A stretch of DNA of 64,000 nucleotides from contig OY759599.1 of the NCBI GenBank assembly GCA_963662465.1, positions 1,376,001-1,440,000 on the forward strand. Reading direction: 5' to 3'. Below, piece after piece: positions 10,002 to 55,557 of the stretch. The stretch comes from Desulfatiglandales bacterium. Lineage in GTDB: Bacteria > Desulfobacterota > DSM-4660 > Desulfatiglandales > Desulfatiglandaceae. Under the pieces are notes generated by a model, which saw only the letters and a list, made by a program, of their open reading frames with translations, made no database searches and had not been told where the DNA came from. Made by a program: the position numbers and the translations under genes. Within the stretch, counting starts at the first letter, position 1. Each line of letters starts with the position of its first letter.

Positions 10002-10123
10002 AACGCCCCAGGGGGCACGTCAATGCATGCGGTCTCGAAACGTTGGAACCAGATTGTGACGGTCACTCCGGGGTTCTTTCACGAGTGCGACAGACAATTC
10101 CACAGCATGAGCTTATCTTCAAA

Positions 10124-10915
10124 ATGATTACATTCGAGCCGATTTGTAACGGAAACTTTTGGTCGGGATCAGATTGGTCGATCACCGACGAGGATGAATT
10201 GGCTGCGCTGATTGCACGCGTAGCCCTCGGGCAATATCGTCATGTCTTGAAAGTTCTGAATGAGACCGACTGCATCGCTTACGCACCTACCCAGAGTGCG
10301 TTGGCAGGTGCGATTCAAACGTTGACCGCAAAAGATCCTGAAAAGCCGTATCATCGCGATGGATGGCTTTTTCAGGTGATCTCTTGGATTGCTGCCAACT
10401 TGCAAGATCCCGAAACTCTCAAGTCACCACCTCACATTATCCATGCCGACAAAGGATTTGATGGCCTTCATCTCCGTTTAGATGCGTCCAATGAGAATGT
10501 TGTTTCAGTCATTGTCTGTGAAGAAAAAGCGACAGATGGGCCGCGCGGGAAAATTACCAGCGAGGTCTGGCCGGAATTTAAGTCACTAGAGGCTGGGGAG
10601 CGGGACAATGAGCTGGTCTCCGAGACGACCACACTCTTAGCTCAAAACAGTCACCTAGACCCAGACAGAGCGGTTTACGAAATCCTTTGGAAACAGGCCC
10701 GTGCTTACCGCATCTCGATCACGATCGGGGACAAGAATTGCTCCAATGAGGGCAGGAAGAGTCTGTTCAAAGGGTACAAAAATGTGACACCCGGTGATAA
10801 TGTTGAAAAGAGACGAGCCGAAACTTTCCATCAAAGTAAACTGCGCGCCTGGATGAAGAGAATGGCGGCGAAGGCCATTGAAGCCGCAAGAGACATGGAG
10901 GCTGAGAATGTATGA
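10124..10915 (+). CDS. hamA: Hachiman HamA-like (DUF1837-like) nuclease-fold protein
   Basis: KGFDGLH...CEEKA PD-(D/E)xK-like motif; stop overlaps the start of a large Ski2-like helicase. Confidence 0.65.
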   Translation: MITFEPICNGNFWSGSDWSITDEDELAALIARVALGQYRHVLKVLNETDCIAYAPTQSALAGAIQTLTAKDPEKPYHRDGWLFQVISWIAANLQDPETLKSPPHIIHADKGFDGLHLRLDASNENVVSVIVCEEKATDGPRGKITSEVWPEFKSLEAGERDNELVSETTTLLAQNSHLDPDRAVYEILWKQARAYRISITIGDKNCSNEGRKSLFKGYKNVTPGDNVEKRRAETFHQSKLRAWMKRMAAKAIEAARDMEAENV

Positions 10916-13900
10916 TCAGGATACAGCCGACCTCATTCGTGCGACGCCTACGCTTGAGGGTCTTGATCGTCAATCCTTGCCCGATCTATTGACCGAGGCG
11001 TTTGCAGAAATCGCTGTGGCGAGAATCAGGTTGCGCGATTTTGATGAGGAAAACCTTGAAGCGCTCACAAGGCTTGTTGAGAAGATGCGGCGGCTCGCAT
11101 ACACAAATGAAGCCTTGGTTTCTGTACTTCCCGAACGTGAAGACAGAAGTTCCGCTGCTTTTGTGGCCGCTACTGCGCACCAACTTTGCTTTAATGCAGA
11201 CAGCCTTTTCAAACATGTTTCCAAACCAACATTTATCGGTATCCGGACCATATCTAGCGATATTGCGGCTATGCTACTGTTCATGGTTGCGGAAGCAACA
11301 TCAGACGCAAGTGAAGTCTCAAAAGCGATGATCTGGCAAGCCAGCGACCCGATTGAAGAGGCTCTGATAGCGTCCCTTCGTGATCTTGCAAAAGGCAAAC
11401 TCCTCACCCTGACAAACCGCAGCATTCCAGATCGTGAAACTGTTGTGTCAGAGTATCCGGCCAGGAGTGCGGTGCGTGCTCTCTATCTCGCAATTCTAGA
11501 AGGTGTTCACGTTCTCGCAAACCAATTATTATTCGGGCATTTATTGGATGATTCTCGCAATCCTGTATCGTTGTTTCGTCGGATCTGTGAGCTTAGCATC
11601 GGGCCTGATCAATTTGTTTCAGAAAAATGGGTTGAGTCACCGAGCAGCGCTTTTTCCGGCCCGTATCATTTGGCATCGCTCCTGATTGCAGTCTCAAAAG
11701 ACCTTTCAGACAGCGCAGTTACGAAAATTCCCGCTCCATCTGGTGTTGATCCGATAAAATGGAGTCGGAGCATGCGTCGTATCGCAAAAACACGTCCCTT
11801 TCTCTGGCGAAATCATCGTTATGCAATTGATCAGGGATATTTGCAGCCGGGCACGTCCGCGGCGGTAGGTTTTCCCACTGGCGCCGGAAAATCAACCCTT
11901 GCAGAGCTCAAGATCAATAACGCCCTTCTGGCGGAGAAGAATGTTATATTCCTTGCCCCGACCCATGCCCTAGTCGATCAGACTTCGCAGTCATTGAGGC
12001 GATCGTTCCCAACGGCGTCGGTCCAGCGCGAACGACAGGACGAGTTTGGATTTGCTACTGGCGACGAGGATCTGCCTGAAATCCTCGTGATGACGCCGGA
12101 ATCCTGTCTAACGCAAATGAGCATTGATACGAGCGCATTTGAGAATATGGGCCTAGTTGTTTTCGATGAGTGCCATCTGCTTCATCCCAGTGAAAACCCC
12201 AACGATCGACGCTCCATTGATGCGATGTTGTGTGTACTGAACCTGTCCACTATTGCAGGCGAAGCCGATTTCCTTTTGTTGTCTGCGATGATGAGAAATA
12301 CCAACGACATTTCCGGATGGATCACAGAATTGACCGATCGGCCTTGCTTATCTCTGAATTTGCCATGGAAACCCACTCGACAATTGCGGGGAAGCGTCGT
12401 CTATAATCAACAGACCGTCACAAGGCTGCAAAATGAATTGACCCGCGCAAAGAAAAGTGCGACGACCAAATACCCCACGGCGGCGCTCAAGAAAACGCTT
12501 AATGCAATGCCTCAGGCGCTTTTTAGCATGAAGCAAACCTGGGCCACGAACAATCGAGAGGACTATGCGCTGGTCGACTTGCTCGATGATTCCGTTCAGT
12601 TGGCAGCCAGTCAGTATTGGAAGCTCACCCCAAATGCGGTGGCAGTATCTTCTTCCATTTCGGCGGCCTCTGCTGTTACGGGTGTGAAGACGCTCGTGTT
12701 CTTTCAGACCATCAAAAATGCGGCGAGCGCTACAAAGCAAATCTCCGACCTTCTTGGGCCGATCTCAATCAAACTGAACAACGAGGAGGCCGGGTGGCTG
12801 GACACCGCTAGAATGGAAATGGGTGGCATCTCACACCTTTATCTTGCGGTTCGAAATGGCAGAGTGGCCCAGCAAGCAGCGGTGCACCATGGTTTGCTGT
12901 TGCCGGAAGAACGACATCTTTGCGAATCTTTGTATAAGCGCGCAGATGGGATAAAGGTCTTGACGGCAACCTCCACGCTTGCTCAAGGGATGAATCTGCC
13001 GAGTGAACTTGTGATTATTGGTGAGGATAGCCGTTTTGATCAGGTCAAGGATAAGCGCGAAATTCTCAAGGCGCAGGAATTGCTGAATGCAGCCGGTCGC
13101 GCTGGGAGGGCGGGTGAGAATTCCAGTGGTATTGTTCTGGTCGTACCAGGCAAGGTTGTTGGCATCGATCTTGACGAGCTAACCATCGGAGCACACTGGA
13201 CTGATCTACGCGAAATATTTGGGCAATCAGATCAATGTCTTGATATTAATGACCCCCTCACGGCAATCTTGGACCGTGTTCACGCTGGTACAGAAAGAGC
13301 TAGAGAGATTGAAAGGTATGCTATCCTGCGGCTTGCATCGGGTGGAAAAGGCGACACCGAAACTGAAGCACTTTCGAACGCAATAAAGTCTTCCTTTGGC
13401 GCCTATCTCGCTCGAAAGAAAAAGGACTATAGCTGGTTAAAGGAACGGATCGATACGGCTACAGCCTTTTTCAAAGAGCAATCTCCAGAAACCGAACGCG
13501 AACTGGTTCAAACTCAGATTGCGGCGAGCTTGGGGCTTTCTCTTGAGCTGGTTTCGCGGTTGTCGGCCGCCCTTGAAGACAGAGGGCCAGGCCCGGACTC
13601 AAAGGTTCCGGATTGGAAGCGCTGGTTCTTCCTGTGGCTCTCTGAGAATCCCGATCTTCTTGAACAAGTCTGTCGGCGGCAGAGCCTTGTCGAACTGTTC
13701 GGAAGAAAAGCCTATGAGGCATTTACAACCGACGAAGAAAAAGCTGCTTATGCGCTTCCAATCCTCAGTAAACTTATTTGGTGCTGGATGAAGGGTGAGC
13801 CTCTGAGCGAGATGGAAAAGGTTTTGGGAACTGATCCGAAAAAGCTCAAGACATGTGACAAGGCACGTCGGTTTGCGCTTAGAATTGTTCCCGAATTGTC

Positions 13901-14210
13901 CTATTTATTCGGTTTGCCGGCATTGCTCCATGAACGAACGCAGGTGAAAGCGGATGATCCTGTTCCACTTCCCGCCGTCCTCACGCAACTGGGCCGTTGC
14001 GTAAGGTTTGGTTTCGATCTCCATGAGAAAGCGGCTCTCAATCAAATTCTGCGCAAGGCGCGGTTATCGCGCCGTCAGGTTCACCAACACTATGCGTTGG
14101 TTAAGCAGCATTTGGCATCAGCGTCGACAAGCGAAACATGGGAGCAGACGCTCCGAAGAGTCGAGATGGCTTCCGAAAAAGAGCTCAATGCCAAATATTT
14201 TGATGAATAA
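10908..14210 (+). CDS. hamB: DEAD/DEAH-box helicase, Hachiman HamB-like
   Basis: PTGAGKS, DECH, LSA, TSTLAQGMN and GRAGRAG motifs; GGAGG RBS before ATG 10908. Confidence 0.75.
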   Translation: MYDQDTADLIRATPTLEGLDRQSLPDLLTEAFAEIAVARIRLRDFDEENLEALTRLVEKMRRLAYTNEALVSVLPEREDRSSAAFVAATAHQLCFNADSLFKHVSKPTFIGIRTISSDIAAMLLFMVAEATSDASEVSKAMIWQASDPIEEALIASLRDLAKGKLLTLTNRSIPDRETVVSEYPARSAVRALYLAILEGVHVLANQLLFGHLLDDSRNPVSLFRRICELSIGPDQFVSEKWVESPSSAFSGPYHLASLLIAVSKDLSDSAVTKIPAPSGVDPIKWSRSMRRIAKTRPFLWRNHRYAIDQGYLQPGTSAAVGFPTGAGKSTLAELKINNALLAEKNVIFLAPTHALVDQTSQSLRRSFPTASVQRERQDEFGFATGDEDLPEILVMTPESCLTQMSIDTSAFENMGLVVFDECHLLHPSENPNDRRSIDAMLCVLNLSTIAGEADFLLLSAMMRNTNDISGWITELTDRPCLSLNLPWKPTRQLRGSVVYNQQTVTRLQNELTRAKKSATTKYPTAALKKTLNAMPQALFSMKQTWATNNREDYALVDLLDDSVQLAASQYWKLTPNAVAVSSSISAASAVTGVKTLVFFQTIKNAASATKQISDLLGPISIKLNNEEAGWLDTARMEMGGISHLYLAVRNGRVAQQAAVHHGLLLPEERHLCESLYKRADGIKVLTATSTLAQGMNLPSELVIIGEDSRFDQVKDKREILKAQELLNAAGRAGRAGENSSGIVLVVPGKVVGIDLDELTIGAHWTDLREIFGQSDQCLDINDPLTAILDRVHAGTERAREIERYAILRLASGGKGDTETEALSNAIKSSFGAYLARKKKDYSWLKERIDTATAFFKEQSPETERELVQTQIAASLGLSLELVSRLSAALEDRGPGPDSKVPDWKRWFFLWLSENPDLLEQVCRRQSLVELFGRKAYEAFTTDEEKAAYALPILSKLIWCWMKGEPLSEMEKVLGTDPKKLKTCDKARRFALRIVPELSYLFGLPALLHERTQVKADDPVPLPAVLTQLGRCVRFGFDLHEKAALNQILRKARLSRRQVHQHYALVKQHLASASTSETWEQTLRRVEMASEKELNAKYFDE

Positions 14211-14290
14211 GACAGCGGGGGAATGTGAATAAAGAAGGGGGCTAAATAAATAAGTTGACATGATTAGGCTCGAATTCATAGTTCCGGATT

Positions 14291-14671
14291 ATGCCACGAT
14301 TAAGCCCATTTAGTGAGCCCGGTATTCTGCACCACGTGATCATAAGGGGCATTGAGCGTAGACGAATATTCAGGGACAGCAAAGACCTGGATGATTTTTT
14401 AACGCGTTTTGGGGACCTCATTCCCGAGACAAGAACTGCCTGTTACGCCTGGGCGCTTTTAACCAACCATGCCCACTTTCTTCTGCGAACCGGAGATTCT
14501 CCTTTGGCAACCTTCATGCGAAGACTTTTGACCGGGTATGTGGGGCAGTTTAATCGCCGACACAAGCGATATGGGCCTTTGTTTCAAAACCGTTTCAAGT
14601 CGATTGTGTGTCAAGAAGATGCATACTTGCAGGAAAGGAAAAAGCAACAGTATCGAAACTTTTTTGAATGA
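14291..14671 (+). pseudogene. RAYT/Y1 HUH transposase, 3' truncated
   Basis: HHVIIRGIERRRIF, NHAH and LFQNRFKS present; sequence ends before the catalytic YxHLNP motif. Confidence 0.85.
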
Positions 14672-14773
14672 CCCGCTCTATGGTATAGACATTCGGGAAA
14701 AGCCAAGCAGTAATGTAGACTGGTCAGAGTACCTCGGCTAACCAAACAAAAAATATGGAGACACATAATATCA

Positions 14774-15076
14774 ATGGACTTCAAGAGTTTGGCAAGAATC
14801 TGCGCAGAGGCGGAAATGAACCACATGATAAATGGAAAATCAGGAGAGCCTGTGGTCCGGGTCGGTGTTACCGGAGACCGGACAAAGGAAACGCGCGTAC
14901 ACATATTAACAGCACCCGAAGGTCATTCGGTCCTGATGGGAAAACCGGTCAAATATGTCAAACTGCATGACCTGACAATCGTGGATATCGTATGCCGCGA
15001 TATCAGAGCGTTTTACAGCAGCAGGAACTGGATCTTGGAAGAATTTATCGATGAAAAACCAAAGGTGCTGCACTGA
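14774..15076 (+). CDS. Hypothetical protein
   Basis: 100-aa ORF, no recognised motif. Confidence 0.45.
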   Translation: MDFKSLARICAEAEMNHMINGKSGEPVVRVGVTGDRTKETRVHILTAPEGHSVLMGKPVKYVKLHDLTIVDIVCRDIRAFYSSRNWILEEFIDEKPKVLH

Positions 15077-15193
15077 CATTTGGCAGCCGGGAAGCACGTC
15101 TGCCTTTAGCTGTTGTTGGCGATTCAAAAATATCTAATTTATGCCACAAGAGAACATTCAGGCATTTTATTAACAGCGTAGAAAAGGAGACAC

Positions 15194-15805
15194 ATGGTTA
15201 AACAGAACAATCCTAAAACAATGTCAGTCCCCAGTGGTCCGGAACCAAACGCGTACCAAATCCAAATGCCGGTGCCACACCCAACACAGGCGCAGCGCGA
15301 TTACGTCTTCGAACACCTCTTTAAAGACGGTCCCACGCGTATGGCAACCGAAGTTTTTCCTGGTTCTCAGATCATCGTCGATAAACACACCTTCGCACGC
15401 AGAGGAAAACCGCCTGACGGCGAGAGCCCAGATCCAAAAGTCCAAACCGCGCCTACCATCTTTTCTCTCAACGATCTGGCGCTTCTCTACGCGTGGGTGA
15501 CCTTCAACGGCTATATTCCGCACGATCAGCGCTCGATCATGATTCGACACAAAGGTATTTCCGAGTGGGATCAGGCTGCGGTCGCGATAGCCGAAACACC
15601 GGACGGCACAACCCACATCCTTTACGCAAAAGCGTTCGAGCACTTCCCCATCAGCGATGATCCGTGCATATCCGACGTATCGTTGCTCGCCGTGGATCTC
15701 TCGGACGTCGAGGCGTTTTTTAAGATAACAGGCAACATCAACCGACTGTGGAGAACCCAATACAAAGTCTGGCACATGGCAACAACCTGGACCGGCCGGG
15801 TATAA
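15194..15805 (+). CDS. Hypothetical protein
   Basis: 203-aa ORF with a clear AAGGAG RBS. Confidence 0.6.
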   Translation: MVKQNNPKTMSVPSGPEPNAYQIQMPVPHPTQAQRDYVFEHLFKDGPTRMATEVFPGSQIIVDKHTFARRGKPPDGESPDPKVQTAPTIFSLNDLALLYAWVTFNGYIPHDQRSIMIRHKGISEWDQAAVAIAETPDGTTHILYAKAFEHFPISDDPCISDVSLLAVDLSDVEAFFKITGNINRLWRTQYKVWHMATTWTGRV

Positions 15806-15925
15806 ATGCCCTGGTGGTTCAAATACTCTCTGCCTGTTTAAATGTCCGAAGACAATCGAAAGGGGGGGGTGGCCAGGGTGTAGCAAGCGGAGGAATTTAG
15901 AATCCACAACGGCTTTAAACCCATT

Positions 15926-18900
15926 ATGCTCAACAAAAAACATAAATCCAATAAAACCGACCCGGCTCACTGTAAGCACCTGAAAGATAAAGCCCGGGAC
16001 ATGACCGGCTGCGAAATCCTAAAGAGTGCCCAAGGTCTTTATGACGCCTGGCGGCAGGAAAACCTAGAAACCATTTTGGATCGCTCCGCTGAAACCGTTC
16101 ACGCTATCCTGGCCGGTCTCAAGATGTTGGGTTTGGACCCTGATCACCTGTTTGCCCGCATGGCCACAGTGGTCAAATCCCCGAATGGCTGCCATTCAAA
16201 CCAACGGGCAAGGATTTCTGAGGATGCTATTCCGGGGATGCGAGATGCGCCGTCTTTCCTGTTCACGCCGAATAACGCAGCGCAGATGGTGGATCTGATT
16301 AAGAAGGAGATGATTGCAAGCGACAGGGTCTGGGTCGCCTCCGCCTTCTACTCTCCGGGAGTCATCAACCTGCTGATCTCCAGTTTTACCCGCTTTACAG
16401 AAACCGGGGGGGAACTCAAAGTCCTTACTTCCACCATGGGCAACTTCAACAGACCCGACTACCTGGTACATCTCCGAGATACCGTGCCGGGTATCCGGGT
16501 AAGGGTTTACCACCCCCGGAACATTCCGTTTGATAAAGCCCCTCCCCCCTTCCACCCGAAGGCCTGGCTGTTTCGCCACCGGGATGGAACGGGGGCTATC
16601 CTGATTGGCTCATCTAATTTTACGGAGGCAGGTTTTTTGAAGAATGTGGAGTGGAATTATTTTTCCGCCGGTGAAGTGAACATCCACTTTGAACAAACAT
16701 CCCCCTTTGAAGACGCTATTTCCGAATTCACGCGGCACTGGGACCTTGAGTCCGTCGAGATTTCCGACGAGTTTCTCTCAGCCTACCGAAACAGGTGGCA
16801 GATGCCGTACGATAGGCGGCAGGACGTTTTCGATCCTCCCGCTGAGAACTGGTCAACGGCGTCTGGAGGGGTAAACCCGAGCGAAACGGCGGTGACACCC
16901 AATCCGGCTCAAATCGAAGCCCTCGTTAGCCTTTCCCGCATGAGAGGACAGGGGATCAAAAAGGCCTCCGTTATCGCGGCCACGGGTGTGGGCAAAACCC
17001 ATTTGGCGGCCTTTGATTACAAGGAGAGCGGGCTCGAAAATATGCTGTTCATCGCACATCGGGAAAACATTCTACTGAAAGCCAGGGAGACATTTCAGAG
17101 CGTCCTGAAGGATGATGTTTTCGGGGAACTCCTGGGGGCAGGCCGGGAAGTCCAAAACGGCTCCGGGGCCGTCTTTGCCATGATCCAGACCCTCAGCCGG
17201 CCGGAACAGCTGGAAAGATTTTCGCCGGATCATTTTGAGTACCTGGTGGTTGACGAGTTTCACCACGGCATGGCGCCCACCTATCTGAAAGCCATTGATT
17301 ATTTCAAACCCCGGTTCATGCTGTGCTTAACAGCCACCCCCGAGCGCATGGACGGCAGGGATGTGCTGCGCCTGTGCGATTACAATGTAGCCTATGAAGT
17401 GCGGTTGCTCGACGCCGTGGACAGGGGGTGGCTCTGCCCCTTTCAATACTTTGCCGTCTATGACGAAACCGACTACCGGCAGATCGCCTGGCGCGGCGCC
17501 CACTACGACGATGAAGAATTGACAAAAGCACTCAGCAGTGACACCCGCACGGCCATTGTTTCCGCCAACCTCAAAAAATACCTTCCCAGTACCGGTAAAA
17601 CGAAGGCACTGGCCTTCTGCAGCTCCGTATCCCATGCGCGATATACGGCGGAAAGGTTGACCCTTGATCACGGCATCGAGTCCCTGGCGCTTTCGGGGAG
17701 TGACCCCGGGGATATAAGAACCGCGGCACTGGCCCGTCTTGAGAACGAAAACGATCCCCTCCGGGTACTCTGCACCGTGAACATTTTCAATGAGGGTGTG
17801 GATATTCCGGGCCTGACCCATGTGCTTTTTCTGCGGCCCACCCAGTCCTTTACGGTTTTTCTTCAGCAGCTGGGACGGGGTCTTCGAAACGCACCGGGGA
17901 AGGAATACCTGGTGGTCATCGATTTCGTGGGCAATTTCAAAAAGGCCCATGTAGCGCCCCTGGCCTTGAGCGGTTATACATCCGTTCAGGAATTTGTGGT
18001 GGATGGTGTTGCGGCGTTTAGGAGTGACGGTTCCGGTTTTACGCTTCCCAAGGGCTGTTTTCTGGATACGGATCTGGATGTCAAACGTATCTGGGACCGC
18101 GAGATACGCAATATCCTTGATGGAAATATTTCGGTTGAGGAAAGACTTAGAGCCCTTTACGCCGATATCCGGTCAGATCTGGATGGCACGTCTCCGTTTC
18201 TCACGGATTTTCTCGACAATGCATTCCGTATGGATCCCTATGTGTTTATCAGGCATTTCGGGAGCTGGTTGAGGACAAAACTTGAATGTGAAGGGCATCT
18301 CGATCCAAAGGAACAAGCCCTGCTGGATACCCCGGGTGAAGCGTTCCTCGGTCATTTGGAATCAGGCCTGAGCCCGGTAAAATCCTATAAGATGGTGGTG
18401 CTGACGTGTCTCCTGGAAATGAAAGAAACCATTTGGGATGTGGAGGCGATTGCAACCGCATTTCGTGGGTTCTTCCTTGTGCATCGGGACAAGCTCTTTG
18501 ATTATGACGACTTGGCAGGTTCCAAGGATCCCGAGGATTTTCCCATCTCGAAGGTTACGACAAAACTGCTCCAGATGCCGCTCAAATATCTGAGCAACAC
18601 GGATACGGACTGGTTCATCCTGGACAAGAACCGGGGGACGTTTGCCTTAAAGCCGGAAGTGGTCCCTTACTGGAATGATCCCTTTTTCAGGGAACTGGTG
18701 GCGGACCGGGTGAAATTCGCCATGGTGCGGTATTTCTCCCGAAAAGCCCGTATTGCCAAGGTGTTGTTCAGCGAAGATATTTTTAAAAGTGGTTTCCCGG
18801 TCGATCGTGATTTTGCTCTTGATTTTTACGCGGAAAGACCGCTGAAAACCGGTGAAAGCCGGAAAGTGAAGCTGAAGGTCAACGGTGGAATCTATGCCGT

Positions 18901-19108
18901 CTCTTTCCAGCGTGCCGCATCAGGGAGGGAGTACAAAATCGGGTACGAACCGGAAAACGAAGTTATCCAGGCATTCAGGGAATATCTGGGGAACCGGTTC
19001 AAGTCGGGTGAAACGGCGTTTACCCTGAAGGTTTCAGGGAAGCATGATCTGGCCGTGGAGGCGTTTCTTGAATGCGTTGACATGGGCGGGAGAGTGAGAA
19101 AACCATAG
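15926..19108 (+). CDS. PLD-nuclease plus SF2 (Res-like) DEAD/DEAH helicase
   Basis: FHPKAW...GSSNFT, ATGVGKT, DEFHH, LTATPERMDG, QQLGRGLR and C-terminal SYKMVVL; start uncertain. Confidence 0.85.
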   Translation: MLNKKHKSNKTDPAHCKHLKDKARDMTGCEILKSAQGLYDAWRQENLETILDRSAETVHAILAGLKMLGLDPDHLFARMATVVKSPNGCHSNQRARISEDAIPGMRDAPSFLFTPNNAAQMVDLIKKEMIASDRVWVASAFYSPGVINLLISSFTRFTETGGELKVLTSTMGNFNRPDYLVHLRDTVPGIRVRVYHPRNIPFDKAPPPFHPKAWLFRHRDGTGAILIGSSNFTEAGFLKNVEWNYFSAGEVNIHFEQTSPFEDAISEFTRHWDLESVEISDEFLSAYRNRWQMPYDRRQDVFDPPAENWSTASGGVNPSETAVTPNPAQIEALVSLSRMRGQGIKKASVIAATGVGKTHLAAFDYKESGLENMLFIAHRENILLKARETFQSVLKDDVFGELLGAGREVQNGSGAVFAMIQTLSRPEQLERFSPDHFEYLVVDEFHHGMAPTYLKAIDYFKPRFMLCLTATPERMDGRDVLRLCDYNVAYEVRLLDAVDRGWLCPFQYFAVYDETDYRQIAWRGAHYDDEELTKALSSDTRTAIVSANLKKYLPSTGKTKALAFCSSVSHARYTAERLTLDHGIESLALSGSDPGDIRTAALARLENENDPLRVLCTVNIFNEGVDIPGLTHVLFLRPTQSFTVFLQQLGRGLRNAPGKEYLVVIDFVGNFKKAHVAPLALSGYTSVQEFVVDGVAAFRSDGSGFTLPKGCFLDTDLDVKRIWDREIRNILDGNISVEERLRALYADIRSDLDGTSPFLTDFLDNAFRMDPYVFIRHFGSWLRTKLECEGHLDPKEQALLDTPGEAFLGHLESGLSPVKSYKMVVLTCLLEMKETIWDVEAIATAFRGFFLVHRDKLFDYDDLAGSKDPEDFPISKVTTKLLQMPLKYLSNTDTDWFILDKNRGTFALKPEVVPYWNDPFFRELVADRVKFAMVRYFSRKARIAKVLFSEDIFKSGFPVDRDFALDFYAERPLKTGESRKVKLKVNGGIYAVSFQRAASGREYKIGYEPENEVIQAFREYLGNRFKSGETAFTLKVSGKHDLAVEAFLECVDMGGRVRKP

Positions 19109-19124
19109 AGAACGGGTGGGCGGT

Positions 19125-19712
19125 ATGACCGATTATTACCAGAAAAATTATCTTGCGTACCACGATCAGACCTTCAGTATCGACCCCGCATCTTTTCTTT
19201 CACCGCTGGTGCGCGCTATGGCTCCCCGCGGCAGCATCCTGGATGTGGGGTGCGGTTCCGGGCGCGATATGCGGTGGCTGAAAGACCGGGGGTTCCGGCC
19301 CACGGGTTTTGAGCGGTCAAGCGGCCTGGCCGCACTGGCGAGGGAGCATTCAGGGTGTTCGGTTCTGGAAGGGGATTTTGAGGCTTATGATTTTTCGGGT
19401 ATGGACGTGGATGCGATCCTGCTGGTGGGGGCACTGGTGCATGTGCCGCACGAGCGGTTTTCGAAAATACTTTCAAATATTGCTCAGGCGTTGAACCCCG
19501 AAGGCCATGTGCTACTCACCCTGAAAGAAGGGGTGAAGACCCGGGCCGCTGCCGGGGGTCGGGTGTTTTACCTCTGGGAGGATGGGGCGCTCAGTGCCGT
19601 TTTTGAGCCGCTTAACCTCACAGTGGTGGATTTTTCCCGGCAGATTTCTAAAGTCAGAAAGAGCGATGTGTGGTTGGGGTATGTGTTGAAGAAACAGGGC
19701 TTCGCGGATTAA
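19125..19712 (+). CDS. Class I SAM-dependent methyltransferase
   Basis: ILDVGCGSGRD motif I; paralog of 34427-35005. Confidence 0.88.
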   Translation: MTDYYQKNYLAYHDQTFSIDPASFLSPLVRAMAPRGSILDVGCGSGRDMRWLKDRGFRPTGFERSSGLAALAREHSGCSVLEGDFEAYDFSGMDVDAILLVGALVHVPHERFSKILSNIAQALNPEGHVLLTLKEGVKTRAAAGGRVFYLWEDGALSAVFEPLNLTVVDFSRQISKVRKSDVWLGYVLKKQGFAD

Positions 19713-19747
19713 CGTGAAATAGAGCATTTTGTTGTTCCCCCGGGCTG

Positions 19748-19771
19748 GTTCCCACGCAGAGCATGGGAACG
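19748..19771 (+). repeat. REP-like hairpin forming the intron 5' exon end
   Basis: GTTCCCA-CGCAGAGCA-TGGGAAC-G; a partial second copy GTTCCCACGCAGAG lies at 35085-35098. Confidence 0.75.
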
Positions 19772-21674
19772 GTGCGCCTGTGAAGGCGCTTTATCAGTGC
19801 GGTGAAAGTCCGTACCGGAGTATGCCATAGCTCCGTAGCCGAAGGTAACTGCGTCGCCGCGAGGCGGGGTGGAGAGCAACCGGAGGCGAAAAGTCAGTCC
19901 GTAGGATGACGAACCCGATTCGGTGTCATGTGGTGGCGAGCCTACCGTTCCATGGTGAAGCCTGAAACTCACAGACCACGCTGTAATGGCGGTTAAAGCG
20001 ATGGTTTGACGGCATGGTATGTTTGGGGTCGGAATGACTGGAAGGTAAAGCGAGATAAGCAGGGAGACCTGTCTCTTGGGGTGACAGGAGGCAGGAGTCA
20101 GAGTCCTCATAGTACCGTAGCGACAGAACGGTCCTGCTAACAAGGCTTACGGCGTGAGACCAGTACCCGCCGCCTGCGTCGGATACCGGGTTGTGAAAAG
20201 CGCGGATAGCAAAACCGTGCCGAGGGAAGGAGGATAGGAAGATAGATACGGAAAGGTCATATAGATGCAGCTAAATCAAGCAGTCTCGGCAGTGTTGGAA
20301 ACAACTAAACGCGAGGCAGAAACCCGATGGGATTGGGTGGAAGCATCGGTGTGGACGGAACGTATGTTGGCAGCCCTGGGTAACGGGGTGAAAGGTGGTA
20401 AATGGTACAGTTTGATGGATAAGGTGTTCGCCTTGTCGACGCTGGAAGCGGCTTGGGGACGTGTCAAAGCCAATAAAGGAGCGGCAGGGATAGACCGTAT
20501 CAGCATAAAGCGCTTTAAGGAGCAGGCGGAGAAATACCTTGCCGAACTGCATGAAACCTTGAAAGCGGGAACGTACCGACCGGAAGCGGTAAAACGGGTA
20601 TACATTCCGAAAAGCGACGGCAAACAACGCCCGCTGGGGATACCCACGGTCAAAGACCGGGTAGTGCAGGCAGCGGTTAAAATGGTTATGGAGCCCATAT
20701 TCGAGCATGAATTTCTGCCGATGAGTTACGGCTTCAGGCCGCAAAGAGGTTGCAAGGACGCGTTGCGAGAAGTAGACGCGCTTATTAAGGAAGGCTACAC
20801 CTTCATACTGGACGCCGACCTGAAAAGTTACTTTGATACGATTCCGCACGATAAGCTGATGCAACAAGTCGAAATGCGCATCAGCGACGGCAAATTGCTC
20901 AATCTGATTCAAATGTTCCTGAAACAGGACGTGATGGACGGCTTGGAAAGATGGACACCGACGGGTGGTTCGCCACAAGGGGCGGTAGTCAGCCCCTTGC
21001 TTGCGAATATTTACCTGCATCCTCTTGACAGCCTGATCGCGGAATCAGGTATGCGGATGGTGCGTTACGCGGACGACTTTGTTATCCTCAGCCGCAGTCA
21101 AACGGAAGCGGAGAATGCTTTGCAAAAGGTACGGGAGTGGGTACAGGCTAATGACCTGAGCTTACACCCGGACAAGACGCATCTTGGCGACTGTCGACAA
21201 AAGGGTCAGGGATTTGAATTCCTGGGATACCGGTTTGAGGCAGGAAAGCGCTGGATACGCAGTAAAAGCCGTAAAGCCCTTCGTGATAAAATCCGGGAAG
21301 AGACCCGGCGCAAACGTAGCGGAAGTATGGAAAGCATCATTGATGATCTGAACCCCATGCTTGAAGGCTGGTTTGGTTACTTCAAACACGCCTACCGCAC
21401 TGAGTTTGCGGCGGTGGATAAGTTTGTCCGCCGACGCTTACGCGCCGTATTATTGCGTCGTAACAAACGCAAGGGCTGGGGCAAAAGCCTTGAAGCCCAC
21501 CGCCGCTGGCCGAATGCCTACTTCGCGAAAATCGGGCTTTTCACTATGCATGAGGCCCGGTTAGCAGCGTGCCGATCCCGATGAGGAAACTATCGACCGG
21601 AGAGCCGTGTGCGGGAGAACCGCATGCACGGTTCGGAGGGAGGGGAGAGCCAAGAGGCTCTTTCCTACCCCTAT
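19772..21674 (+). mobile_element. Group II intron, copy 1 (1903 bp)
   Basis: 5' GTGCG, domain V GAGAGCCGTGTGCGGGAGAACCGCATGCACGGTTC, domain VI and 3' end CCCTAT; internal RT ORF. Confidence 0.95.
20265..21584 (+). CDS. ltrA: Group II intron reverse transcriptase/maturase without endonuclease domain
   Basis: GAAGID, RPLGIPTVKDR, PQGAVVSPLLANIYL, YADD and GWFGYF; no HNH tail. Confidence 0.95.
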   Translation: MQLNQAVSAVLETTKREAETRWDWVEASVWTERMLAALGNGVKGGKWYSLMDKVFALSTLEAAWGRVKANKGAAGIDRISIKRFKEQAEKYLAELHETLKAGTYRPEAVKRVYIPKSDGKQRPLGIPTVKDRVVQAAVKMVMEPIFEHEFLPMSYGFRPQRGCKDALREVDALIKEGYTFILDADLKSYFDTIPHDKLMQQVEMRISDGKLLNLIQMFLKQDVMDGLERWTPTGGSPQGAVVSPLLANIYLHPLDSLIAESGMRMVRYADDFVILSRSQTEAENALQKVREWVQANDLSLHPDKTHLGDCRQKGQGFEFLGYRFEAGKRWIRSKSRKALRDKIREETRRKRSGSMESIIDDLNPMLEGWFGYFKHAYRTEFAAVDKFVRRRLRAVLLRRNKRKGWGKSLEAHRRWPNAYFAKIGLFTMHEARLAACRSR

Positions 21675-23577
21675 GTGCGCCTGTGAAGGCGCTTTATCAG
21701 TGCGGTGAAAGTCCGTACCGGAGTATGCCATAGCTCCGTAGCCGAAGGTAACTGCGTCGCCGCGAGGCGGGGTGGAGAGCAACCGGAGGCGAAAAGTCAG
21801 TCCGTAGGATGACGAACCCGATTCGGTGTCATGTGGTGGCGAGCCTACCGTTCCATGGTGAAGCCTGAAACTCACAGACCACGCTGTAATGGCGGTTAAA
21901 GCGATGGTTTGACGGCATGGTATGTTTGGGGTCGGAATGACTGGAAGGTAAAGCGAGATAAGCAGGGAGACCTGTCTCTTGGGGTGACAGGAGGCAGGAG
22001 TCAGAGTCCTCATAGTACCGTAGCGACAGAACGGTCCTGCTAACAAGGCTTACGGCGTGAGACCAGTACCCGCCGCCTGCGTCGGATACCGGGTTGTGAA
22101 AAGCGCGGATAGCAAAACCGTGCCGAGGGAAGGAGGATAGGAAGATAGATACGGAAAGGTCATATAGATGCAGCTAAATCAAGCAGTCTCGGCAGTGTTG
22201 GAAACAACTAAACGCGAGGCAGAAACCCGATGGGATTGGGTGGAAGCATCGGTGTGGACGGAACGTATGTTGGCAGCCCTGGGTAACGGGGTGAAAGGTG
22301 GTAAATGGTACAGTTTGATGGATAAGGTGTTCGCCTTGTCGACGCTGGAAGCGGCTTGGGGACGTGTCAAAGCCAATAAAGGAGCGGCAGGGATAGACCG
22401 TATCAGCATAAAGCGCTTTAAGGAGCAGGCGGAGAAATACCTTGCCGAACTGCATGAAACCTTGAAAGCGGGAACGTACCGACCGGAAGCGGTAAAACGG
22501 GTATACATTCCGAAAAGCGACGGCAAACAACGCCCGCTGGGGATACCCACGGTCAAAGACCGGGTAGTGCAGGCAGCGGTTAAAATGGTTATGGAGCCCA
22601 TATTCGAGCATGAATTTCTGCCGATGAGTTACGGCTTCAGGCCGCAAAGAGGTTGCAAGGACGCGTTGCGAGAAGTAGACGCGCTTATTAAGGAAGGCTA
22701 CACCTTCATACTGGACGCCGACCTGAAAAGTTACTTTGATACGATTCCGCACGATAAGCTGATGCAACAAGTCGAAATGCGCATCAGCGACGGCAAATTG
22801 CTCAATCTGATTCAAATGTTCCTGAAACAGGACGTGATGGACGGCTTGGAAAGATGGACACCGACGGGTGGTTCGCCACAAGGGGCGGTAGTCAGCCCCT
22901 TGCTTGCGAATATTTACCTGCATCCTCTTGACAGCCTGATCGCGGAATCAGGTATGCGGATGGTGCGTTACGCGGACGACTTTGTTATCCTCAGCCGCAG
23001 TCAAACGGAAGCGGAGAATGCTTTGCAAAAGGTACGGGAGTGGGTACAGGCTAATGACCTGAGCTTACACCCGGACAAGACGCATCTTGGCGACTGTCGA
23101 CAAAAGGGTCAGGGATTTGAATTCCTGGGATACCGGTTTGAGGCAGGAAAGCGCTGGATACGCAGTAAAAGCCGTAAAGCCCTTCGTGATAAAATCCGGG
23201 AAGAGACCCGGCGCAAACGTAGCGGAAGTATGGAAAGCATCATTGATGATCTGAACCCCATGCTCGAAGGCTGGTTTGGTTACTTCAAACACGCCTACCG
23301 CACTGAGTTTGCGGCGGTGGATAAGTTTGTCCGCCGACGCTTACGCGCCGTATTATTGCGTCGTAACAAACGCAAGGGCTGGGGCAAAAGCCTTGAAGCC
23401 CACCGCCGCTGGCCGAATGCCTACTTCGCGAAAATCGGGCTTTTCACTATGCATGAGGCCCGGTTAGCAGCGTGCCGATCCCGATGAGGAAACTATCGAC
23501 CGGAGAGCCGTGTGCGGGAGAACCGCATGCACGGTTCGGAGGGAGGGGAGAGCCAAGAGGCTCTTTCCTACCCCTAT
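21675..23577 (+). mobile_element. Group II intron, copy 2 (1903 bp), directly abutting copy 1
   Basis: Junction CCCTAT|GTGCG; one synonymous difference seen (21362 T versus 23265 C). Confidence 0.95.
22168..23487 (+). CDS. ltrA: Group II intron reverse transcriptase/maturase, copy 2
   Basis: Protein identical to 20265-21584. Confidence 0.95.
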   Translation: MQLNQAVSAVLETTKREAETRWDWVEASVWTERMLAALGNGVKGGKWYSLMDKVFALSTLEAAWGRVKANKGAAGIDRISIKRFKEQAEKYLAELHETLKAGTYRPEAVKRVYIPKSDGKQRPLGIPTVKDRVVQAAVKMVMEPIFEHEFLPMSYGFRPQRGCKDALREVDALIKEGYTFILDADLKSYFDTIPHDKLMQQVEMRISDGKLLNLIQMFLKQDVMDGLERWTPTGGSPQGAVVSPLLANIYLHPLDSLIAESGMRMVRYADDFVILSRSQTEAENALQKVREWVQANDLSLHPDKTHLGDCRQKGQGFEFLGYRFEAGKRWIRSKSRKALRDKIREETRRKRSGSMESIIDDLNPMLEGWFGYFKHAYRTEFAAVDKFVRRRLRAVLLRRNKRKGWGKSLEAHRRWPNAYFAKIGLFTMHEARLAACRSR

Positions 23578-23757
23578 AGTGCGAACGCGAAGTCAGCACC
23601 GATTTTCACGTTAATCCGCGATGAACCAAAATATTTTACTCATCGACGATCTATTTCGTTCAGGCGCCACGCTCAAAGTTGCCACTCAAATAATGCTCGA
23701 AAAAGCAAATGCCAAAAAAGTATGTGTATTAACAATGACAAAAACTAGGATAAACCG

Positions 23758-25220: not shown

Positions 25221-25636
25221 TGTGTGAAGCGGCCAGAGGGGCAACTTCACAAATAATAGGAGGAAAAGATTGTCCTGAACAATGTCAAATTCATGTGTTA
25301 TGTATATAATACATGAGGCTTGCAAAATTGATGAAAAATGATGCTGTTAAGCGGTAAATAATATACAGCTCCATCCTTTGACTATATTATTACGCCTCAT
25401 AAAAGTGAATAGGGAGGCGTTATGGAGCAATTTGAAACACGGTTCAAACGAGTTGATGTATTCCCAATGGTCAAACATTTTATTAGGGTGGTTTTTTGGA
25501 TTAACTAATTGATTAAATTTAGTTTTTCCTGGTCCGACCCCAGACCAACCAACAGATTATTTCGTATTGACAAAGGCACCATTGTGACGTACATTTATGC
25601 CGCGTGTTGATAAAAAAAACTCAGGGAAACTTTACC

Positions 25637-25924
25637 ATGGATGCAGCAACTCAAAATAGAAACGAGCGGATCAACCTCCGTGTGAAAAGCAGCGCAAAGC
25701 GCCTCTTAACGCGTGCAGCCGATTTTGAGGGCAAGACCGTCAGTCATTTTATACTGACCAGTGCCTTGAAGTGTGCAGAGGAAACCGTCCAAGAGCATCA
25801 GATGATGACGTTGAATACAGAAAATTCAAGGGCCTTTTTCGATGCGCTGGCCGCTCCGGTGCGTTTTAATCGCAAATTGATCACAGCTCTTGAAGAATAT
25901 GATAAGCGCGTCATCAGCAAATGA
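25637..25924 (+). CDS. DUF1778 (RHH) antitoxin
   Basis: RNERINLRV..AADFEGKTVSHFIL..FFDALAAP; ATGA overlap with GNAT gene. Confidence 0.88.
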   Translation: MDAATQNRNERINLRVKSSAKRLLTRAADFEGKTVSHFILTSALKCAEETVQEHQMMTLNTENSRAFFDALAAPVRFNRKLITALEEYDKRVISK

Positions 25925-26463
25925 CGAATTTCCGGAATCTGGTCATAGCACCGCTGAACGCCGCTCATGACAGAGTCGGTTTCCGCTGTAATGTAGAAGC
26001 ATTGGATCAGTATATTCATAAGCAGGCAGGGCAGGATATCAGACGCCGCATCAGTCGTATTTTTGTTGCAGCGCTGCCGGACAACCCCAAAGAGGTAATG
26101 GGTTATTACAGCCTGAGCACATTATCCATTGAACTGAGGCAATTGCCGGAAAAGCTGGCCAGGAAGTTGCCGAAGCATCCAGTTCCCGCTGCTCTGATTG
26201 GCAGACTGGCAGTCAGTAAAAATGCCCAGGGATTTGGCATCGGCAAAATGCTGCTGGTAGATGCTATTCAGCGAACCCTGTCGGTCAGTGACCAGATCGC
26301 CATCTATGCCATTGTTGTTGATGCCATTAACGACAACGCCAAAGGCTTTTATGAGCAATTCGGGTTTGCCCGCTTAAGCGATGACAGTCCAAGACTGTTT
26401 CTGCCTTTAAAATCTTTTGTAAACAACCCAGTACCCATTAACCCAATACCCAGTGTCTATTAA
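25921..26463 (+). CDS. GNAT acetyltransferase toxin
   Basis: ALIGRLAVSKNAQGFGIGKMLLVDA, VDAINDNAKGFYEQFGF. Confidence 0.9.
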   Translation: MTNFRNLVIAPLNAAHDRVGFRCNVEALDQYIHKQAGQDIRRRISRIFVAALPDNPKEVMGYYSLSTLSIELRQLPEKLARKLPKHPVPAALIGRLAVSKNAQGFGIGKMLLVDAIQRTLSVSDQIAIYAIVVDAINDNAKGFYEQFGFARLSDDSPRLFLPLKSFVNNPVPINPIPSVY

Positions 26464-28413: not shown

Positions 28414-29091
28414 ATGCCACGATTAGCCCGTTTAGACGCTCCCGGTATTCTGCACCACGTAATCATAAGGGGCATTGAGCGTAGAAGAATATTCAGGGAC
28501 AGCAAAGACCTGGATGATTTTTTAGCGCGTTTTGGGAACCTCATTCCCGAGACAAAAACTGCCTGTTACGCCTGGGCGCTTTTAACCAACCATGCCCACT
28601 TTCTTCTGCGAACCGGAGATTCTTCTTTGGCAACCTTCATGCGGAGGCTTTTGACCGGGTATGTGGGGCAGTTTAATCGCCGACATAAGCGACATGGGCC
28701 TTTGTTTCAAAACCGTTTCAAGTCGATTGTGTGTCAAGAAGGAGATGATAGAATCCTTGGCGATAGTGAATTTGTACATGAGATGTTGAAAAAAGCAGAT
28801 GATAGATTTGATCGGTATTATGAATTAAAACGCCTCGGTTATAATCTTGAAAGTGTGGAGGCCAAGGTTTGCAGGATATATGATGTATCTGTCGAAGATA
28901 TCTATTCAAAAAGTCGTGAAAAAGTCAAAGCGGAGGCCCGGGGTCTATTTTGTTATTGGGCTGTAAGAGAGCTGGGCTATAGCATGTTGGAACTGGCGCG
29001 GCGACTTAGAATGAGTCAACCGGGAGTGGTCTACGCAGTGAGAAGGGGAGAACGTTTGGCAACCGAGAAGTGGCTTGCGCTAACCGGTTGA
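28414..29091 (+). pseudogene. RAYT/Y1 transposase with in-frame internal deletion
   Basis: CQE joined directly to GDDRILGD near 28740; the YVHLNP region seen in 57345-58349 is missing. Confidence 0.85.
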
Positions 29092-54877: not shown

Positions 54878-55102
54878 TTGAAAACCCCACAACATGTAGA
54901 CTTATGCGTGAATTTGGATACTCGTGAAGATTATGGAGAAGATCGTTGGATGGGAATCGGTCTTTTTGAAATGCGCGTTGTCGTTCTGGCCTTCACTGAA
55001 ATAAATGAGGAAAACATCCGCATAATCTCATTTCGAAAGGCAATAAAAGATGAACGGAAACGATTCGAATACTATTGCAAAAACGAATTTGGAGCGTATT
55101 GA
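54878..55102 (+). pseudogene. brnT: BrnT-family toxin, 5' truncated
   Basis: DYGEDRWMGIG..VVVLAFTE..IRIISFRKA. Confidence 0.8.
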
Positions 55103-55261
55103 CGCAATGACTGATGATATGATTGACACGTCAGACATTCCTCCATTGACAGATGACTTTTTTGCGACGGCAAAATGGCGAATGCCAAAGCCGAAAGTTA
55201 AAGTTATGTTGGAAATTGAACCAGAGGTCCTTGATTGGTTCAAAGCTCACGTGGGGCGAAT
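55050..55261 (+). pseudogene. brnA: BrnA-family antitoxin, cut by a MITE
   Basis: IDTSDIPPLTDDFF..KVKVMLEIEPEVLDWFKA, then runs into the MITE. Confidence 0.75.
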
Positions 55262-55416
55262 GGGACGTACGTCAGATTATAAGTTAATACATCATTCATT
55301 GCATGATATTAAGCAGACATGCCACGCAAAACTCGCATGGAGTAGCACAGAAGGCTACCAAATTGTAGGGAAAGAACCGAAGGCCTTTTGGAAATTTATA
55401 ATCTGACGAACGTCCC
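55262..55416. mobile_element. MITE-like family 1, complete 155-bp copy
   Basis: GGGACGTACGTCAGATTATAAGTT ... AATTTATAATCTGACGAACGTCCC terminal IRs. Confidence 0.85.
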
Positions 55417-55486
55417 TGCCCCCCCCCCCCCCCCCCCGAACATCACCACCGGTGGTTCAGCCTTGATCAATGGATAAAGGTGACAT

Positions 55487-55557
55487 GAGGAGCCGTGTAC
55501 GGACCCGTACGCACGGTTCTGTGGGCAGACGGGAGCCTCGGCTCCCTCTAACCCGAT
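55487..55557 (+). mobile_element. Group II intron 3' remnant (domains V-VI) of a different lineage
   Basis: GAGCCGTGTACGGACCCGTACGCACGGTTC, GGGAGCCTCGGCTCCC and terminal ACCCGAT. Confidence 0.8.

Follow-up and report, generated by a model that had tools for sequence, protein, structure and literature searches.

How two group II introns come to stand head to tail in a bacterial chromosome, with nothing between them, is the question raised by a locus of a Desulfatiglandales bacterium. The window, a stretch of 64,000 nucleotides (contig OY759599.1, positions 1,376,001 to 1,440,000), contains two such introns of 1903 nt each on the forward strand, copy 1 at 19772-21674 and copy 2 at 21675-23577. 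The sequence itself, a repeat search and a script agreed on these boundaries and on the zero spacer. The junction reads ...CCTACCCCTAT|GTGCGCCTG..., i.e., CCCCTAT|GTGCG, and is present in the assembly as an earlier note on this DNA had described it. The repeat comprises exactly 2.0 units; the flanks, ..GGGAACG before copy 1 and AGTGCG.. after copy 2, lie outside it. A 1903-nt repeat with one mismatch far exceeds what can be expected by chance.

The sole difference between the copies is found at unit position 1591, where copy 1 has T (21362) and copy 2 has C (23265). The position is the third base of a leucine codon (CTT/CTC) in the intron open reading frame, so the change is synonymous, as the earlier note had stated. 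Both units are complete at their 3′ ends, where domains V-VI (21600-21674 and 23503-23577, forward strand) match the Rfam model RF00029 with 62.4 bits (gathering score 40). The reverse transcriptase (RT)/maturase frame of 439 amino acids is intact in both units (20265-21584 and 22168-23487, forward strand) and encodes the same protein. A class I SAM-dependent methyltransferase gene (19116-19712; Methyltransf_25, 7.4e-16) ends 59 nt ahead of copy 1; because it is close upstream and on the same strand, read-through from it could supply intron RNA.

The intron, its protein and its target hairpin

The element has domains V-VI at its 3′ end and an RT/maturase in domain IV, as expected of a mobile group II intron. 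A domain search (E up to 0.001) of the intron protein identified RVT_1 (1.5e-41) and GIIM (6.4e-18) and nothing else; an endonuclease domain was not found in the 439 amino acids by this search. The protein scored 409.7 bits against TIGR04416 (cut-off 300). Its closest solved relative is the GsI-IIC RT (PDB 6AR1; 7.3e-65, residues 49-395), to which the similarity is moderate, the intron described here being a different and uncharacterised one. We take the four best solved relatives, 6ar1, 7uim, 5hhj and 5hhl, to be IIC-type RTs or RTs of IIC introns; the IIB T.el4h-type protein 6me0 was not far behind them (4.4e-51). The ribozyme matched RF02001 (group-II-D1D4-3), a model that presumably represents class C, with 27.8 bits, which is under the gathering score of 32. 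Two traits of class C, a protein without an endonuclease domain and insertion directly downstream of a stem-loop, are present, the latter at 11 of 12 sites, where the hairpin is GTTCCCACGC..GCGTGGGAAC followed by G. The 5′ exons of relatives, which were read by eye and left uncounted, terminate in a GC-rich hairpin followed by 2-5 nt. Judged by these sequence features, the intron is an uncharacterised, hairpin-targeting, endonuclease-less, group IIC-like element.

According to the accessible text of Toor et al. (2006, PMC1702495), group IIC introns such as B.h.I1 insert directly behind inverted repeats, among them terminator stem-loops, have a short IBS1 and a one-base IBS3, recognize a stem-loop and lack an endonuclease domain. 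The intron studied here is alike in these properties and likewise stands behind a hairpin. Unlike the introns described in that text, however, it targets a repeated chromosomal palindrome that has no T run and lies partly within a miniature inverted-repeat element, its IBS1 and the 3′ stem arm overlap, and its match to RF02001 is sub-threshold. The word "tandem" has no occurrence in the same accessible text.

In the window, the target hairpin (19748-19771, forward strand) consists of 23 nt, GTTCCCACGC-AGA-GCATGGGAAC, plus G, and its last six bases, GGAACG (19766-19771, forward strand), form IBS1. They are complementary to EBS1, CGUUCC, which is located in copy 1 at 19946-19951 in the terminal loop UACCGUUCCAU, a loop taken from the sub-threshold RF02001 alignment, and in copy 2 at 21849-21854. 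EBS3 was assigned to the U at intron position 251, within the motif GUG-N-UUGGGG (20022 in copy 1 and 21925 in copy 2; all on the forward strand). Both assignments were made by covariation across 42 relatives. The loop homologous to EBS1 can form at least five contiguous pairs with the last bases of the 5′ exon in 33 of them, and of all columns position 251 shows the best complementarity to the first 3′-exon base (+1), with 36 Watson-Crick pairs and four G.T wobbles among the 42. Taken by the base at +1, the expected partner was present for C-G in 30/31, A-U in 4/5, G-C in 2/2 and T-G in 4/4. Folding the first 493 nt by free energy (z = -1.84) was of no help in locating the EBS sites. A possible EBS2-IBS2 pairing, of a kind that class C introns lack, would involve a further stretch in the Id3 region, CACGCU, which complements AGCGUG of the 3′ arm of the hairpin. 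At half of the sites, however, the arm has AGCAUG, and CACGCU is paired in the RF02001 alignment.

U251 faces an A at +1 at 12/12 sites. In the tandem, EBS3 of copy 2 faces the original IBS3, A23578 (forward strand), as a Watson-Crick pair, and that of copy 1 faces G21675, the first base of copy 2, as a U.G wobble. EBS1 of copy 2 has no pairing with the adjoining upstream CCCTAT, so the junction before copy 1 is the only usable target.

The hairpin is enclosed by two 17-nt arms, CGCGGATTAACGTGAAA on the left (19703-19719) and TTTCACGTTAATCCGCG on the right (23604-23620), which were located by a genome-wide arm search. With up to two mismatches, 98 arms were found across the genome, many as inverted pairs 80-400 nt apart, the two at 19703 and 23604 being those of the window. 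Because the copies are dispersed over the whole chromosome, we read the arms as the ends of a dispersed miniature inverted-repeat element. On the same ground, their identification as integron attC core sites, which they resemble with one mismatch each, was rejected. The arms are absent at the other insertion sites of the intron.

Copies in the genome and similar tandems elsewhere

The genome carries 13 copies of this intron family at 12 sites, all 12 of which have precise 5′ junctions. Position 1591 is T in seven copies and C in five. Two of the other copies, at genome positions 457979 and 6950286, have exactly the sequence of copy 1, and one, at 6271191, has exactly that of copy 2. Since the units of the tandem carry the very alleles that split the copies of the genome 7 to 5, the pattern suggests two separate insertions by members of two sublineages. 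A single difference cannot give the order of arrival.

The minimum of the GC skew put the replication origin at 5.76 Mb, where a DnaA gene lies (5768458); the terminus was placed at 1.78 Mb. Of the 12 hairpins that point the way the fork moves, nine are occupied, against two of the remaining 23 (Fisher p = 1.4e-4), so most of the good targets are filled. The same orientation bias was reported for endonuclease-less introns, as described in the available portion of PMC4615759, and the copies analyzed here may have inserted at replication forks. Targets are not exhausted, since at least three co-oriented and at least 21 anti-oriented competent sites are still empty; two co-oriented hairpins with G at +1, at genome positions 1132642 and 1340574, are among the unoccupied ones, which counts against the explanation preferred below. 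The picture that emerges is one of a recent burst of 13 copies with a strong replication-orientation bias and with favorable targets near saturation.

Other tandems were found as well. The same assembly contains a zero-spacer tandem of another intron family, and because its units are only 96.8% identical it is not a collapsed or duplicated repeat. On an Armatimonadota chromosome, a related intron shows the same zero-spacer arrangement, with an EBS3 C facing G (locus L083). Upstream stands a full-length copy that has one difference in 1848 bases from a copy elsewhere (L115) and matches L115 at 9/9 sites that differ from the diverged downstream copy, which has no open reading frame. Given these two results, the upstream copy appears to be a whole-unit insertion before an older one. 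Metagenome contigs, 38 in all, contain the same type of junction. In the 31 with a readable EBS3, this base is G in 19, U in seven, C in four and A in one, so that in 20 of the 31 it is unable to pair with the resident G. An EBS3 of U or C is present in 11/31 metagenome tandems versus 7/42 background relatives, a weak trend taken without a formal test.

The family was also surveyed with a 400-nt junction query in 105 genomes, including that of the window. An end-to-end match was found in the window's genome only and partial matches in 14 others; absence in this survey means little, because most of the relatives are fragmented assemblies with contigs broken at repeats. The intron had no match in the E. 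coli genomes searched, and literature searches for a natural tandem of IIC introns did not find one described.

Origin of the tandem

We consider it probable that a group IIC-like intron retrohomed twice into one site, the second copy entering upstream of the resident. The first arrival would be the present copy 2, with the C allele, which entered behind the hairpin GTTCCCACGC..GCATGGGAAC plus G. This event would have spared the hairpin and IBS1, and the A at +1 would have been replaced by the first base of the intron, G. Such an occupied site keeps its 5′ recognition elements intact, and the first G of the resident can form a wobble pair with U251. A ribonucleoprotein of the T-allele sublineage could then have reverse-spliced at the same phosphodiester, with EBS1 on IBS1 and EBS3 in a U.G wobble with the resident G, and copy 1 would thereby have come to lie behind the hairpin and directly before copy 2. 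Copy 1 is thus probably the later arrival and copy 2 the earlier resident. Stacking would have been made likelier by the fact that nearly all favorably oriented hairpins are filled. A tandem formed by reinsertion should display a zero-spacer junction of a 3′ end with a 5′ G, intact 5′-exon recognition elements before the first unit only, and an EBS3 able to pair with the first G of the intron; the locus has all of these. The converse arrangement, in which the second copy would have entered behind the first with domain VI serving as the hairpin, was rejected because CCCTAT is unable to pair with EBS1.

The earlier note had suggested that the intron recognizes only the 5′ exon, so that an occupied site remains a target. 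Stacking at an occupied site is indeed the best explanation, but the word "only" is not correct, because EBS3 and IBS3 form a Watson-Crick or wobble pair in 40/42 relatives. Nonetheless, the U.G wobble may be incidental, because EBS3 cannot pair with the resident G in 20/31 metagenome tandems, where it is G or A, and pairing of EBS3 with the first G may not be required in this lineage. These 20 junctions, set against the 40 of 42 single insertions that obey the EBS3-IBS3 rule, raise the tentative and rather doubtful generalization that stacking is a common natural outcome for hairpin-targeting (IIC-type) introns and is mostly independent of pairing between EBS3 and the resident G. If this were true, the 3′-exon check would be bypassed at occupied sites, e.g., by particles made beside the site, or there would be a second route to dimers, for which end-to-end template switching by the intron RT is one candidate. 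The tandem in the window would in the latter case be a product of that route and its wobble pair a coincidence.

Formation of the dimer in a single event, for instance by template switching or from a circle, is unlikely in our judgment, although several observations are compatible with it. The intron protein has the GsI-IIC RT as its closest solved relative (7.3e-65), and end-to-end template switching by that enzyme is the subject of papers (10.1101/792986 and PMC8363836, in the parts that were accessible). The metagenome tandems with a non-pairing EBS3 indicate that a route ignoring EBS3 may exist, and the T/C pattern would fit the involvement of two sublineages, whether as two RNAs or as a circle plus a resident copy. 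However, template switching depends on an intron with a free 5′ end, and the 5′ junctions of this family are precise at 12/12 sites. The published tandems were explained by reinsertion, as far as the available text of PMC12584367, PMC4075523 and PMC4615759 goes. At L083, where the proposal of the earlier note that a circular or concatemeric cDNA had integrated could be tested on a related tandem, the upstream copy is no mosaic of the two partners, and a Campbell-type crossover would be confined to the first 138 nt. Integration of such a cDNA is disfavored there and is still a rival at the window locus.

Two other explanations would leave a single insertion at this site. The cells could have one copy here, the second unit and its difference being produced from reads of the other 12 copies that were joined or polished wrongly. 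The 13 copies are near-identical and both alleles of position 1591 occur elsewhere, so polishing could mix them; as an argument against an assembly duplication, the single difference is weaker than the earlier note had claimed. In public data, two runs of one sample contained 0.97 of the sampled words of the flank (X17 and X18) and one run contained 0.39 (X19). Compared over positions 21275-22074 of the window, X17, X18 and X19 are assembled contigs that end at 21674/21675, and no independent contig among those listed bridges the junction. Against this, the genome is a single N-free contig of 8.16 Mb whose end is 1.39 Mb away from the tandem, the second zero-spacer tandem in the assembly belongs to another family with 96.8% identity between units, and the junction type recurs in the 38 metagenome contigs and in one other genome. 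An artifact is quite improbable on this balance. A single resident might also have been duplicated in place, through replication slippage or unequal recombination, and one unit later altered by gene conversion or a point mutation; we regard this history as very improbable. Bacteria often undergo tandem duplication, and it would fit that only one base differs; yet the ends have no in-register homology (3′ exon AGTGCG versus intron GTGCG), and the sole difference falls on the one site that splits the genome copies 7 to 5, which is unlikely by random mutation in 1903 positions. Duplication on the GTGCG microhomology was rejected, since a slip would have added an A at the junction, and no such A is present.

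Published precedents and meaning of the tandem

Retrohoming twice into one site, the reading we prefer, has precedents. Tandem insertion through pairing of EBS3 with the first G of the intron was published for three other introns in mobility assays; we cite these reports from their available parts (PMC12584367, PMC4615759 and PMC4075523). In EcKTE56.groEL, an E. coli intron of subgroup IIB1 (Gomes et al., Mob DNA 2025, PMC12584367), an EBS3 U pairs with the intron G, and tandems are a minority, 4.2% of the full-length-intron integrants and about 3% of the nanopore reads. As seen in that part of the report, its case and ours share the zero-spacer junction of a 3′ end with GTGCG, the EBS3 U wobbling with the first G of the resident, and the entry of the new copy between the 5′ exon and the resident. 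In contrast, EcKTE56.groEL uses EBS1 and EBS2, homes to the groEL stop codon and was followed in over-expression assays, whereas here a IIC-like, hairpin-targeting intron is found in a natural chromosome with units from two sublineages. The Sinorhizobium meliloti introns are represented by head-to-tail copies of RmInt2, with an EBS3 U (PMC4615759), and by tandem insertions of retargeted RmInt1, with an EBS3 C (PMC4075523). The available text of both papers describes endonuclease-less introns with a lagging-strand-template bias, properties shared with the present one, and credits the tandems to pairing of EBS3 with the first G; RmInt2 also has the U-A EBS3/IBS3 pair found here. They differ in that they belong to class D (IIB-like), target insertion-sequence DNA by way of EBS1/EBS2 and were studied in plasmid assays.

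The tandem is therefore an ordinary natural example of a known behavior and not a new kind of element or mechanism. Its value is that it offers a clean natural case, in an uncharacterised hairpin-targeting intron, of a behavior hitherto documented mainly in over-expression assays. For annotators and assemblers, it is a caution that perfect intron dimers can be real. Because CCCTAT, the sequence directly upstream of copy 2, cannot pair with EBS1, recursive splicing of the tandem RNA would follow logically, and the locus is a natural substrate on which such splicing can be tested. The survey of related tandems, in turn, raises the testable question of how exacting IIC-type introns are about the base that begins the 3′ exon.

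A head-to-tail tandem from one intron family

The sequence and a repeat search identified two group II intron units of 1903 nt each on the plus strand, at window positions 19772-21674 (unit 1) and 21675-23577 (unit 2). They meet at ...CCTACCCCTAT|GTGCGCCTG... with a spacer of zero, and since the flanks, GGGAACG 5' of unit 1 and AGTGCG 3' of unit 2, do not continue the repeat, it consists of exactly two units. Their sole difference, at unit position 1591 (T at 21362, C at 23265), falls on the third position of a Leu codon. An earlier note had claimed a zero-spacer tandem of two 1903-nt introns, and the junction, the unit lengths and the 1591 difference all bear it out. Both units have a full match to domains V-VI at their 3' end (RF00029, 62.4 bits) and carry an intact ORF of 439 amino acids with RVT_1 and GIIM domains (TIGR04416, 409.7 bits), in which a domain search found no endonuclease domain. 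The closest solved relative of this protein is the GsI-IIC reverse transcriptase (7.3e-65); the three further reverse transcriptases that join it among the best solved relatives are presumably proteins of IIC introns.

The window sits in one contig of 8.16 Mb, where 13 full-length copies of the intron occupy 12 sites. Twelve copies share at least 99.9% identity. Position 1591 divides the family into seven copies with T and five with C, and unit 1 has the sequence of two other copies and unit 2 that of one other copy; the tandem thus unites the family's two "master" sequences. The palindrome GTTCCCACGC-(3-4 nt)-GCRTGGGAAC, followed by G, precedes 11 of the 12 sites, and the first base of the 3' exon (+1) is A at all 12. 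The palindrome-less copy (genome 2868022-2869931, minus strand, 1910 nt) is the one with small indels. Its 5' flank ends in CGAATG. The copy comes after GGAGGTCATGCGAATG, which resembles a ribosome-binding site and start codon, and may have inserted ectopically at a gene start.

Target recognition and occupancy

Eighty related loci, with intron protein identity of up to 74%, were taken from public genomes and their intron ends were placed by profile searches. The 5' exons of these relatives consist of a GC-rich hairpin and then a few bases at the end, an arrangement that is the hallmark of the group IIC class (Toor et al. 2006, PMC1702495). Pairing was counted in an alignment of 42 introns for which both ends were defined. 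In 33 of them, at least five contiguous pairs link the 5' exon end to the terminal loop homologous to UACCGUUCCAU, and the EBS1 of the window intron is CGUUCC, the complement of GGAACG (IBS1). EBS3 was assigned to intron position 251, the column that best complements +1 (36 Watson-Crick and 4 G.T pairs; +1/EBS3 combinations C-G 30/31, A-U 4/5, G-C 2/2, T-G 4/4). One of the two exceptions, the related locus L048, seems to reflect an intron boundary misplaced by one base. The EBS3 of the window intron is U, which complements the A found at 12/12 sites and can wobble with G.

Cumulative GC skew is lowest at 5.76 Mb, at a DnaA gene, and highest at 1.78 Mb. Of 66 genomic matches to the hairpin motif, introns occupy 11, and another 24 are vacant yet competent (ending in GGAAYG with A next). 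Nine of 12 hairpins co-oriented with fork movement are occupied versus 2 of 23 in the opposite orientation (Fisher p = 1.4e-4); the majority of favourable sites thus already hold an intron. This bias is consistent with insertion into the lagging-strand template, which has been reported for introns lacking an endonuclease (PMC4615759). Both empty hairpins that are co-oriented and carry G at +1 remain unused, which counts against easy wobble. At genome 1102386 (plus strand), an empty co-oriented target hairpin is followed by ATGCGCCTG, an 8/9 match to the intron's first nine bases; the hairpin itself carries no intron.

Repeats and genes around the tandem

The tandem is flanked by 17-nt arms of a miniature inverted-repeat element (window 19703-19719 and 23604-23620). 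Ninety-eight such arms (at most two mismatches) are dispersed across the genome, many paired 80-400 nt apart, and the element holds the target hairpin at three of the 12 intron sites, including this one. Since a second palindrome, GGACGCAGAGCGTCC (35 copies, at most one mismatch), often precedes the target hairpin, both palindromes may be REP-type repeats, with three ORFs that have IS200-like Y1 transposase domains as their transposases. These ORFs lie on the plus strand (window 14291-14671, 28414-29091 and 57345-58349), one of them fused to a DnaA-type helix-turn-helix. A plus-strand row of large genes (DNA methylase, SNF2-type helicase, DEAD-box helicase and PLD-helicase protein; window 3440-19108), with an IS200-like Y1 transposase ORF interspersed, resembles a defence island. 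A likely toxin-antitoxin pair (window 25604-26463, plus strand) consists of a TacA-like antitoxin and, next to it downstream, a GNAT acetyltransferase. About 24 identical ORFs of 240 amino acids genome-wide match the DnaA ATPase profile (38.5 bits); most likely they encode a helper ATPase belonging to an insertion sequence present in many copies. At window 55488-55557 (plus strand) lies an orphan domain V-VI fragment from another kind of group II intron (RF00029, 45.6 bits), with no intron ORF upstream; a C run lies nearby at about 55418-55438, and the adjacent ORF 55050-55406 gave only a weak BrnA antitoxin match.

Probable insertion at an occupied site

A first insertion would leave the hairpin and IBS1 intact and would turn +1 into the intron's own G. 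CCCTAT, 5' of the junction between the units, cannot pair with EBS1, so the sole entry point for a second copy would lie between hairpin and resident intron, and unit 1 is likely the later arrival. For EcKTE56.groEL, of whose full-length intron 4.2% of integrants were tandem, pairing of an EBS3 U with the intron G is reported to explain the tandems (PMC12584367). The same explanation is given for RmInt2, with EBS3 U (PMC4615759), and for retargeted RmInt1 (PMC4075523); the window intron shares the U of EcKTE56.groEL and RmInt2, whereas retargeted RmInt1 has C. The first explanation offered in the note, that an occupied site is still a target and introns stack, is probably right in essence.

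Other zero-spacer tandems bear on how the units were joined. At L083, a related locus on an Armatimonadota chromosome with EBS3 C and usual +1 G, a 1848-nt intron is followed directly by a 742-nt ORF-less derivative. The upstream copy has one difference in 1848 bases from L115, another copy of the intron, and carries the L115 base at 9/9 sites separating it from the downstream copy; a whole unit was thus inserted upstream of an older one. A degenerate junction pattern matched 38 metagenome contigs, among them eight circularly permuted assemblies, eight that run from the hairpin 5' exon through a complete upstream unit to the junction, and seven that run from the junction through a complete downstream unit into the 3' exon. 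Of the 31 contigs with a readable EBS3, 19 have G, 7 U, 4 C and 1 A there; in 20 of them it could not pair with a resident G. Such pairing is therefore not required across the lineage as a whole, which leaves room for a second tandem-forming route. Birth of the tandem in one event, whether by template switching or because a circular cDNA integrated, agrees with these 20 junctions and with the allele pattern at position 1591, but is disfavoured by the whole-unit arrival at L083 and by the precise 5' junctions.

An assembly artefact is unlikely: although public contigs stop at the intron ends, this genome forms one contig, and the same assembly contains at least one more zero-spacer tandem, diverged and from another family (genome 3329531-3331756 and 3331757-3333981; units of 2225/2226 nt, 96.8% identical). 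The genome has 42 domain V matches above threshold, 13 of them within 3.30-3.35 Mb, and the approximately 825 nt directly after the second tandem (to genome 3334806) start with TTGCGAC and have a further domain V match at their end. Local duplication is very improbable, as it would need a later change precisely at the polymorphic position 1591 and there is no in-register homology between the ends.

With this tandem, a new IIC-like intron provides an ordinary natural case of a behaviour already in the literature. A logical consequence of the tandem is that excision of unit 1 would restore GGAACG|GTGCG before unit 2, and recursive splicing is predicted; since the insertion site is intergenic, the host may not need it.
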